DNA from: Escherichia phage PinkRuby
Strand: one strand, 5' to 3'
Sequence record: PP925839.1
Length of the DNA: 64,000 nt
A program made the translations under genes and the position numbers. The notes beneath the pieces are model-generated. The model was given only the letters and a program-made list of their open reading frames with translations. It was not told the DNA's origin and searched no databases. Below, piece by piece: positions 24,491 to 24,556 of the stretch. Position 1 is the first letter of the stretch; every line of letters starts with the position of its first letter.

Positions 24491-24527
24491 TTTTATTCTC
24501 CGAGATGTTTAATTGCGGTACAGGTAT

Positions 24528-24556
24528 ATAATATCATATCCTGTACCAAAGTAAAC
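24528..24556 (-). promoter_or_regulatory. T4 early-type promoter (GTTTAC-N17-TATTAT) with -10 inside an 8-bp inverted repeat
   Basis: Minus strand GTTTAC ... TATTAT; palindrome ggtacagg/cctgtacc (24517-24547) encloses the -10. Confidence 0.5.

Follow-up and report, generated by a model that had tools for sequence, protein, structure and literature searches.

Early promoters with -10 elements inside inverted repeats in a T4-like phage: putative hairpins of read-through RNA

Short inverted repeats coincide with early promoters in the genome of Escherichia phage PinkRuby, of which a stretch of 64,000 nucleotides (record PP925839.1; hereafter the window) was analysed. The 7-kb stretch around the repeats is a Tequatrovirus (T4-like) match at 94-98% identity and carries the genes pseT, cd, 31, rIII and 30.x. 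All local genes are on the minus strand, and so are all 13 matches in the window to a strict early-promoter pattern, GTTTAC-N17/18-TAnnnT; the repeats must therefore be read on the minus strand. At three of these promoters, called sites 1, 2 and 3 below, a repeat surrounds or overlaps the -10 element. The promoters at all three sites are of the sigma-70 type, GTTTAC-N17/18-TATTAT or TACTAT, with a TGn motif. The sequences directly before GTTTAC, as read at the three sites, are GCATAAAATA, CAATTTAATA and TTTCAAAAAGTA, and the 3′ end of each cassette is formed by the Shine-Dalgarno (SD) sequence and start codon of the downstream gene. That they are T4 early promoters, as a first-pass annotation of the sequence had assumed, was already known: promoter and arm sequences of T4 are identical to those of the window at sites 1 and 2, the T4 record names the site 2 promoter Pe133295, and the early transcript of T4 gene 30.7 has been mapped, with a known RegB cleavage site in its SD region (PMC9409239). 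The idea of a promoter combined with a stem-loop is likewise published, as the promoter-early stem-loop (PeSL) cassettes of T4-type phages (Arbiol et al., 2010, PMC2839356; Comeau et al., 2014, PMC4122927).

Coordinates of the three sites and of related features are collected in Table 1. At site 1, the perfect 8-bp repeat that the first-pass annotation had placed at 24517-24547 around a TATTAT is indeed present: on the plus strand it runs from GGTACAGG (24517-24524) to CCTGTACC (24540-24547) with a gap of 15 nt. Read on the minus strand, the promoter is GTTTAC-N17-TATTAT, the loop carries both the TGn and the -10, and the predicted +1 is the G at 24521, about the fourth base of the 3′ arm. The repeat of site 2, also found where it had been reported (28415-28442), is a perfect 7-bp match of GGTAGAG (28415-28421) with CTCTACC (28436-28442) across a 14-nt gap. 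Its loop, TTGTGATATTATAG, includes the -10 TATTAT; on the mRNA strand the stem extends to 12 bp including three G.U pairs, and the +1, according to the name T4 Pe133295, is the A at 28417, the fifth base of the 3′ arm. Site 3 had been described as a weaker example at 40168-40193. A repeat does lie on the -10 there (6 bp, AGGGTA/TACCCT), but it ends one base later, at 40194, and it is not weaker: on the mRNA strand AGGGTAGTAGT and ACTATTACCCT form 11 bp with one G.U pair around a 5-nt loop. This stem overlaps the -10 rather than bracketing it, as TACTAT (40179-40174) is mostly inside the 3′ arm, and the predicted +1 is the A at 40167, just beyond that arm. The start sites at 24521, 28417 and 40167 were placed by the usual distance of 7 nt.

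Table 1. Hairpin-associated early promoters and neighbouring features in the window. In class A, an anti-SD sequence in the promoter spacer pairs with the downstream SD; class B is the type of sites 1 to 3. Parts are listed 5′ to 3′ on the minus strand.
Feature	Position	Strand	Parts and remarks
Site 1: gene 30.7 early promoter nested in hairpin	24517..24556	-	Between genes 30.8 and 30.7; GTTTAC 24556-24551; TTT; 5′ arm GGTACAGG 24547-24540; ATATGA; TATTAT 24533-24528; ATA; 3′ arm CCTGTACC 24524-24517
Gene 30.7 leader, outside hairpin	24488..24501	-	SD GGAG 24501-24498; ATG 24490-24488
Site 2: early promoter after cd.3, nested in hairpin	28415..28453	-	T4 Pe133295; GTTTAC 28453-28448; TTTAC; GGTAGAG 28442-28436; TTGTGA; TATTAT 28429-28424; AG; CTCTACC 28421-28415
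Site 3: frd.1 early promoter overlapped by hairpin	40168..40203	-	Between frd.2 and frd.1; GTTTAC 40203-40198; AGA; 5′ arm AGGGTAGTAGT 40194-40184; loop GTGAT; 3′ arm ACTATTACCCT 40178-40168
Class A: gene 30.8 early promoter	24936..24986	-	Spacer CTCCTTTGT 24973-24965 pairs with SD ACAAAGGAG 24944-24936
Class A: early promoter 61459	61407..61459	-	Anti-SD GTTCTTCCGT 61447-61438 pairs with ACGGAGGAAC 61416-61407
Class A: early promoter 31778	31726..31778	-	Spacer CCTCGTGTTGTGT 31767-31755 pairs with SD ACATAACATGAGG 31738-31726
Class A: near-identical second copy of the 31778 cassette	15936..15988	-	Arms 15977-15965 and 15948-15936
Canonical intrinsic terminator upstream of the 30.8 promoter	25015..25036	-	AAGGACTCC-TTCG-GGAGTCCTT, then TTTTTT

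The association of stems with early promoters far exceeds chance. When Watson-Crick stems between the spacer and the 22 nt that follow the -10 were sought in the window, stems of at least 7 bp were found in 3 of the 13 promoters, against 0.17 expected when flanks are swapped between promoters; at random positions the frequency of such stems is 0.0215. Relatives were then added in the form of 42 IMG/VR loci anchored on the cd gene (61-100% protein identity). Among 66 non-redundant promoters, 38% have a stem of at least 8 bp across the -10 and 24% one of at least 10 bp, compared with 1.9% and 0.4%, respectively, after swapping of flanks. The stems are also sharply placed. For 37 stems of at least 8 bp lying within 90 nt on either side of 61 promoters, the centre is 0-9 nt from the first base of the -10 hexamer in 20 cases, 31-70 nt upstream in 13, at 10-19 nt in three and elsewhere in one. 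Such repeats are absent from six of the window's 13 promoters.

Which molecule could fold is suggested by the position of the start sites. An RNA that reads through from upstream contains both arms, and its predicted fold has a free energy of -19.2, -16.3 and -18.0 kcal/mol at sites 1, 2 and 3 (z-scores of -3.5, -2.9 and -2.8). The RNA of the promoter itself is devoid of the 5′ arm, since the +1 lies within or just after the 3′ arm. Folding of these predicted 5′ leaders, which the first-pass annotation had proposed as a check of its hairpin, accordingly returns -0.8, 0 and -1.9 kcal/mol, i.e., unstructured leaders. Furthermore, the two strands are not equivalent. In 19 of 24 hairpin promoters the mRNA-sense strand is predicted to fold more stably than the antisense strand (p = 0.015 for the folding free energy; Wilcoxon p = 1.3e-4 for the z-scores). 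This strand evidence, as far as predicted folds go, speaks for a structure of RNA rather than for a duplex operator or a cruciform.

Comparison among relatives, another check suggested at the first pass, showed that the repeats are conserved and that the hairpin is retained at orthologous junctions. The arms of site 1 are unchanged in T4 and 14 relatives, whereas these phages differ in the loop, in the leader and even in the gene upstream, and the single arm change, C to T, retains a G.U pair. In the family of site 2 (15 orthologs, aligned without gaps), both sides have changed in 8 of the 11 pairs, as in the arm combinations GGTAGAGTT/AGCTCTACC, GGTAGGACT/AGTCCTACC, CCGGAAGT/ACTTCCGG and CTGGAAG/CTTCCAG. 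There, 80.5% of cells are paired, compared with 26-50% after displacement of the partner by 1-3 columns, and none of 500 shuffles reached the covariation score. In 30.7 orthologs (39-99% protein identity) the -10 of the promoter almost always lies within a hairpin, and at least eight unrelated arm sequences make up these hairpins. Likewise, a hairpin of 10-12 bp covers the -10 at the frd.2/frd.1 junction in six genera, among them Tequatrovirus, Mosigvirus, Dhakavirus, Jiaodavirus and Winklervirus, and its arms differ from genus to genus. Unrelated arms that still pair at orthologous junctions indicate that base pairing is conserved, not sequence.

The hairpins depend on gene context. The stop codon of the upstream gene is within 8 nt of GTTTAC at 21 of 24 hairpin promoters, and at 6 of the 26 hairpin-free promoters (Fisher p = 4.7e-6). 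The upstream open reading frame (ORF) adjoining hairpin promoters is co-directional, and since early promoters and mapped middle promoters are located upstream on that strand, read-through RNA is to be expected. Where the intergenic space is longer, the promoter tends instead to be preceded by a canonical terminator, and in the two 30.7 orthologs with such a terminator the -10 hairpin is absent. Searches with the covariance models of Rfam 15 found no family at gathering score for any of the sites; three sub-threshold chance matches were obtained, all away from them. One of these, Atu_C8 (32.5 bits, gathering score 50; 25001-25084 on the minus strand), overlaps the canonical terminator before the 30.8 promoter and is most likely a chance similarity to the terminator hairpin.

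A sister class of hairpins, class A, is found at four other early promoters of the window, where the SD itself is predicted to be the 3′ arm (Table 1). At the 30.8 promoter (GTTTAC at 24986; -10 TAGTAT at 24962-24957, +1 at about 24950), the SD has a predicted probability of being unpaired of 0.00 in read-through RNA and of 0.71 in RNA begun at the promoter itself. The corresponding values are 0.00 and 0.84 for the promoter at 61459, where the read-through fold reaches -22.9 kcal/mol, and 0.00 and 0.71 for that at 31778, with -31.0 kcal/mol. Own-RNA values of 0.71-0.84 are thus found in three of the four. In the fourth, at 15988, the SD (15935-15952, minus strand) is predicted to be paired in the own transcript too (0.02 unpaired; 0.00 in read-through RNA). 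In a wider set of class A promoters the probability is 0.02 in read-through and 0.56 in own RNA (p = 0.001). Classes A and B substitute for each other at the same orthologous junction, and this mutual replacement suggests a shared role as a structure of read-through RNA. SD masking was also considered for sites 1, 2 and 3 themselves and rejected, the SD being predicted open in their read-through RNA (0.83, 0.62 and 0.88 unpaired). Another idea, that the purine-rich 5′ arm acts as a decoy shielding the SD from the C-rich 3′ arm, was dropped after scrambling of the 5′ arm in silico changed the unpaired probability from 0.50 to 0.45, which is not significant.

Some features of the arm sequences are recorded here. 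Class B arms of the window, of the relatives and of phage RB49 have a common polarity, with a purine-rich and often SD-like 5′ arm (GGTAGGA, GTAGGAG, GTGAGGG, GGGAGTA) and a C-rich 3′ arm; in class A the polarity is reversed. The run TACTATTACCCTATCAACTA, from the -10 onward, is common to the promoters with GTTTAC at 61459, 58155 and 40203 (minus strand, 61430-61416, 58126-58112, the latter approximate, and 40179-40160). Among the three, only the promoter at 40203 has the complementary AGGGTA in its spacer, and part of the 3′ arm of site 3 is therefore a shared promoter-family sequence. The near-identical class A cassettes at 31726-31778 and 15936-15988 (GTTTACAAGTCCCTCGTGTTGTGT...ACTGACATAACATGAGGA) are about 16 kb apart, precede different genes and are possible recombination substrates.

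The repeats also act as substrates for inversion of the loop between the arms. In the T4 record NC_000866, bases 133300-133313 are annotated as [quoted passage not shown]. These 14 bases are exactly the loop of site 2 (window 28422-28435), and the inverted, promoter-destroying form is found in only one of 629 records, the clone sequence X03007.1 of the 1980s. Probably, either the repeats mediated an inversion that was selected when a strong and toxic promoter was cloned, or the sequence was misread; a programmed flip switch at this T4 site was considered and is unsupported, given this single record. Among 639 records, none showed site 1 with its loop inverted. A natural case exists in Mosigvirus, at the homolog of site 3 (frd.2/frd.1; loci of PTK (L058), moha (L060), KAW3E185 (L066), pEB20 (L067) and RB69 (L068), together with L069 and L070). 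Three isolates, from Denmark, Germany and South Korea, have the 8-nt loop CTATAACA, and their relatives carry TGTTATAG, its exact reverse complement, between identical 10-bp arms. By this inversion the -10 changes from TATAGT (with TGn) to TAACAT with the spacing unchanged.

Insertions or deletions are also seen beside the cassettes. An ORF of about 175-180 amino acids (27866-28408, minus strand) directly follows the site 2 cassette and is absent from T4, where cd.2 follows the promoter, which implies an indel flush with the cassette. The listed start of this ORF, the ATG at 28408, lies inside the SD, and the ATG at about 28393 is the likelier start. In phage T6 (L065, 259-398), an extra small ORF lies right after the site 3 hairpin and before frd.1.

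The explanation favoured here, with a little more belief than doubt, is that the inverted repeats are the DNA trace of an RNA hairpin which forms only in read-through RNA and serves as an intercistronic barrier or an attenuator. A strong sigma-70-type early promoter would be nested within the region encoding the hairpin: its spacer would hold the 5′ arm, its extended -10 would be the loop or inner stem, and its +1 would lie inside or just after the 3′ arm. Two kinds of RNA would result. RNA begun at the nested promoter would have an open, readily translated leader, sensitive to RegB in the case of 30.7. Polycistronic RNA from the co-directional gene directly upstream, the only RNA in which the hairpin would form, would carry, after the stop codon of that gene and before the ribosome binding site (RBS) of the next, a stable stem-loop (-16 to -19 kcal/mol). 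As a barrier, the hairpin may be a stop for 3′-exonuclease or processing that fixes the stable end of the upstream message; alternatively or additionally, it may be a non-canonical attenuator of read-through RNA. It would take the place of the canonical terminator that other early promoters have upstream where there is room. At class A promoters, where the 3′ arm is the SD itself, read-through copies would be translationally silent. From the analysis as a whole, an intercistronic barrier or attenuator appears to be the most likely role at the three sites.

Several points weigh against this explanation. Formation of the hairpin in vivo and its effect on read-through RNA are inferred from predicted folds. 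At the three sites no change in SD accessibility, and hence no translational effect, is predicted (0.62-0.88 unpaired), and in class B overall the unpaired probability of 0.50, against 0.58 in own RNA, is not significantly different; with no translational effect predicted, the specific function is reached by exclusion and analogy. The invariance of the site 1 arms in close relatives would, by itself, fit a sequence constraint as well as a structural one. The bias in mismatches at helix ends (G.T 16, A.C 6; p = 0.05) is marginal and confounded by the GTGn motif beside the -10, and as a strand test this count was replaced with the comparison of sense and antisense fold z-scores given above. Finally, the PeSL211/210 stem-loop of RB49, which likewise has no U-tract, is reported to be terminator-like in its effect.

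The last point leads to the reading of the PeSL authors, in which the stem-loop is a true terminator or attenuator for polymerase arriving from upstream, overlaid on the promoter. The RB49 stem-loop, placed between a promoter and lacZ, is reported to have cut expression to an extent similar to that of rrnB T1 (Arbiol et al., 2010, PMC2839356), but the lacZ assay cannot tell termination from RNA processing or decay. The stem-loop assayed lies wholly within the spacer. It also fits this reading that -10 hairpins and canonical upstream terminators tend to be mutual alternatives, and the Mosigvirus homolog of site 3 in KAW3E185 is annotated as a predicted terminator, by ARNold. What the stems lack is the make-up of an intrinsic terminator, namely a G+C-rich stem, a short loop and a U-tract. 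The 8 nt after -10 hairpins are A-rich (on average 4.1 A and 1.7 T, compared with 5.8 T after upstream canonical terminators; p = 2.9e-5), and the loops are long at the Watson-Crick level. A scan with a terminator pattern flagged 25036-25015 and none of the three sites. A canonical intrinsic terminator was hence rejected for all three, where the U-tract is absent after the stems. Moreover, the T4 literature treats most prereplicative 3′ ends as ends of stable RNA and not as termination sites, a view that the barrier reading fits. True termination of a non-canonical kind is a live rival, though a rather doubtful one.

A role at the level of DNA, in which a hairpin or cruciform promotes recombination between cassettes (modular shuffling) or modulates promoter opening, is improbable. 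Recombination at PeSLs has been proposed (Arbiol et al., 2010, PMC2839356; Comeau et al., 2014, PMC4122927), and the indels after sites 2 and 3, the near-identical cassette present twice in the window and the loop inversions described above are all in keeping with it. Inversions and indels, however, can be side effects of repeats, and recombination requires similarity between cassettes, not complementarity inside one. A stem of 7-8 bp with a loop of 14-15 nt would make a poor cruciform, the sense-strand bias and the G.U pairs are unexpected for a duplex or cruciform, and the association with an abutting upstream ORF is not predicted.

The first-pass annotation had also suggested that the palindrome could bind a dimeric regulator. 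Such an operator for early promoters would suit the symmetry centred on the -10 and the GGTA...TACC common to the three window sites, and the mechanism of early-promoter shut-off is not fully understood. Nevertheless, it is very unlikely, because symmetry and a conserved sequence would be expected of an operator in duplex DNA. From site to site the arms differ, and at orthologous junctions they are unrelated (at least eight kinds at that of 30.7), with covariation that retains complementarity; arm length and register vary; and the mRNA-sense strand folds better than its complement. Besides, almost half of the window promoters (6 of 13) do without the repeat, whose presence depends on a gene abutting upstream. 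A similarly low probability is given to chance, or to a functionless by-product of quasi-palindrome mutation: the loop inversions show that template-switch events act on these repeats, but neutrality would not account for an excess of about 20-fold over swapped-flank and random controls, for stems centred so sharply on the -10, for independent arm sequences kept at orthologous sites across genera, or for the dependence on context. The hairpin at the 5′ end of the promoter's own transcript, proposed at the first pass, has in its favour only that the repeat is near the start site and is scarcely credible, as the 5′ arm is in the untranscribed spacer, the +1 is within or after the 3′ arm (as in T4 Pe133295) and the own leaders are predicted to be unstructured.

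What the hairpin of read-through RNA would mean for T4-like phages can be put as a general design rule, which is offered as a speculation. Every early promoter that abuts an upstream gene might have its -10 in an RNA hairpin, so that mRNAs are sorted by their start: self-initiated RNA would be open and read-through RNA structured, one class of the latter being translationally silent. The same repeats would let the -10 loop invert, as seen in the Mosigvirus polymorphism of three isolates and once in a T4 clone, and could thereby constitute an evolvable switch of promoter activity or strength. To the published promoter-plus-stem-loop idea, the present analysis adds quantitative support for selection on -10-centred stems of T-even phages as mRNA-strand structures, their distinction from the canonical terminators described for PST/T4, their appearance specifically where read-through from an abutting gene is unavoidable, and the existence of two interchangeable hairpin forms, one of which is predicted to mask the RBS. 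If the explanation is true, it would account for the mutual insulation of densely packed early genes with overlapping transcripts in T4, a model phage for which early shut-off and the 3′ ends of RNA are still incompletely understood. Engineering of T4-type phages would be affected too, as insertion or deletion of genes beside the cassettes would alter which RNAs fold.

Among known systems, the closest are the PeSLs. Their stems occur at five listed positions, one of which is "overlapping the -10 box", a subclass described in RB49 and phi1 (Arbiol et al., 2010, PMC2839356). The three cassettes are PeSLs of this -10-overlapping subclass, so that the match to promoter-plus-stem-loop cassettes noted at the first pass holds. 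They share with PeSLs the strong sigma-70-type early promoter, the A/T-rich upstream region, the stem-loop in an intergenic cassette of about 100 bp, and the SD and start codon at the 3′ end. RB49 regions such as GGGAGTA-GTAAGA-TACTCCC are alike in build, in arm polarity and in the missing U-tract, and indels adjoin cassettes in both, here as individual cases rather than in a statistical test. There are differences as well. The arms do not follow RB49's G(n)...C(n) motif. The stems of PST/T4 PeSLs were described as "just upstream" of the promoter with the motif "AGNA-loop-TCNT" (Comeau et al., 2014, PMC4122927); in the sequences analysed this motif corresponds to the canonical terminators, AGGACTCC-TTCG-GGAGTCCT-TTTT, and the stems of sites 1 to 3 are a separate element, centred on the -10 and of other sequences. 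Terminator-like activity is reported for the RB49 stem-loop; the stems described here do not look terminator-like in sequence. Reviews of T4 early transcription and a five-genome comparison make no mention of structures at early promoters.

A similar nesting is known from T4 late promoters, those of genes e, soc, 49 and I-TevI, which lie inside RBS-sequestering hairpins (PMC3014915). There too, RNA from the nested promoter is without the 5′ strand and longer RNA from upstream folds. In the window, the promoters at 24986, 61459, 31778 and 15988 are the counterparts that are predicted to occlude the SD in read-through RNA. The promoters of sites 1, 2 and 3 differ in being of the early sigma-70 type, not of the late TATAAATA type, and in having a 3′ arm with neither SD nor AUG, for which no translational masking is predicted.

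With intrinsic terminators the hairpins share a stem-loop at a gene end; besides the absence of a U-tract, they differ in their longer, A/T-richer stems and larger loops. Intercistronic hairpins that stabilise messages as barriers to 3′-exonucleases are found in bacterial operons, such as REP elements and the malE-malF case. From these, the hairpins of sites 1 to 3 are set apart by a built-in promoter, and they are known here from sequence alone; like them, they are stable stem-loops, without a U-tract, between two genes that are co-transcribed.

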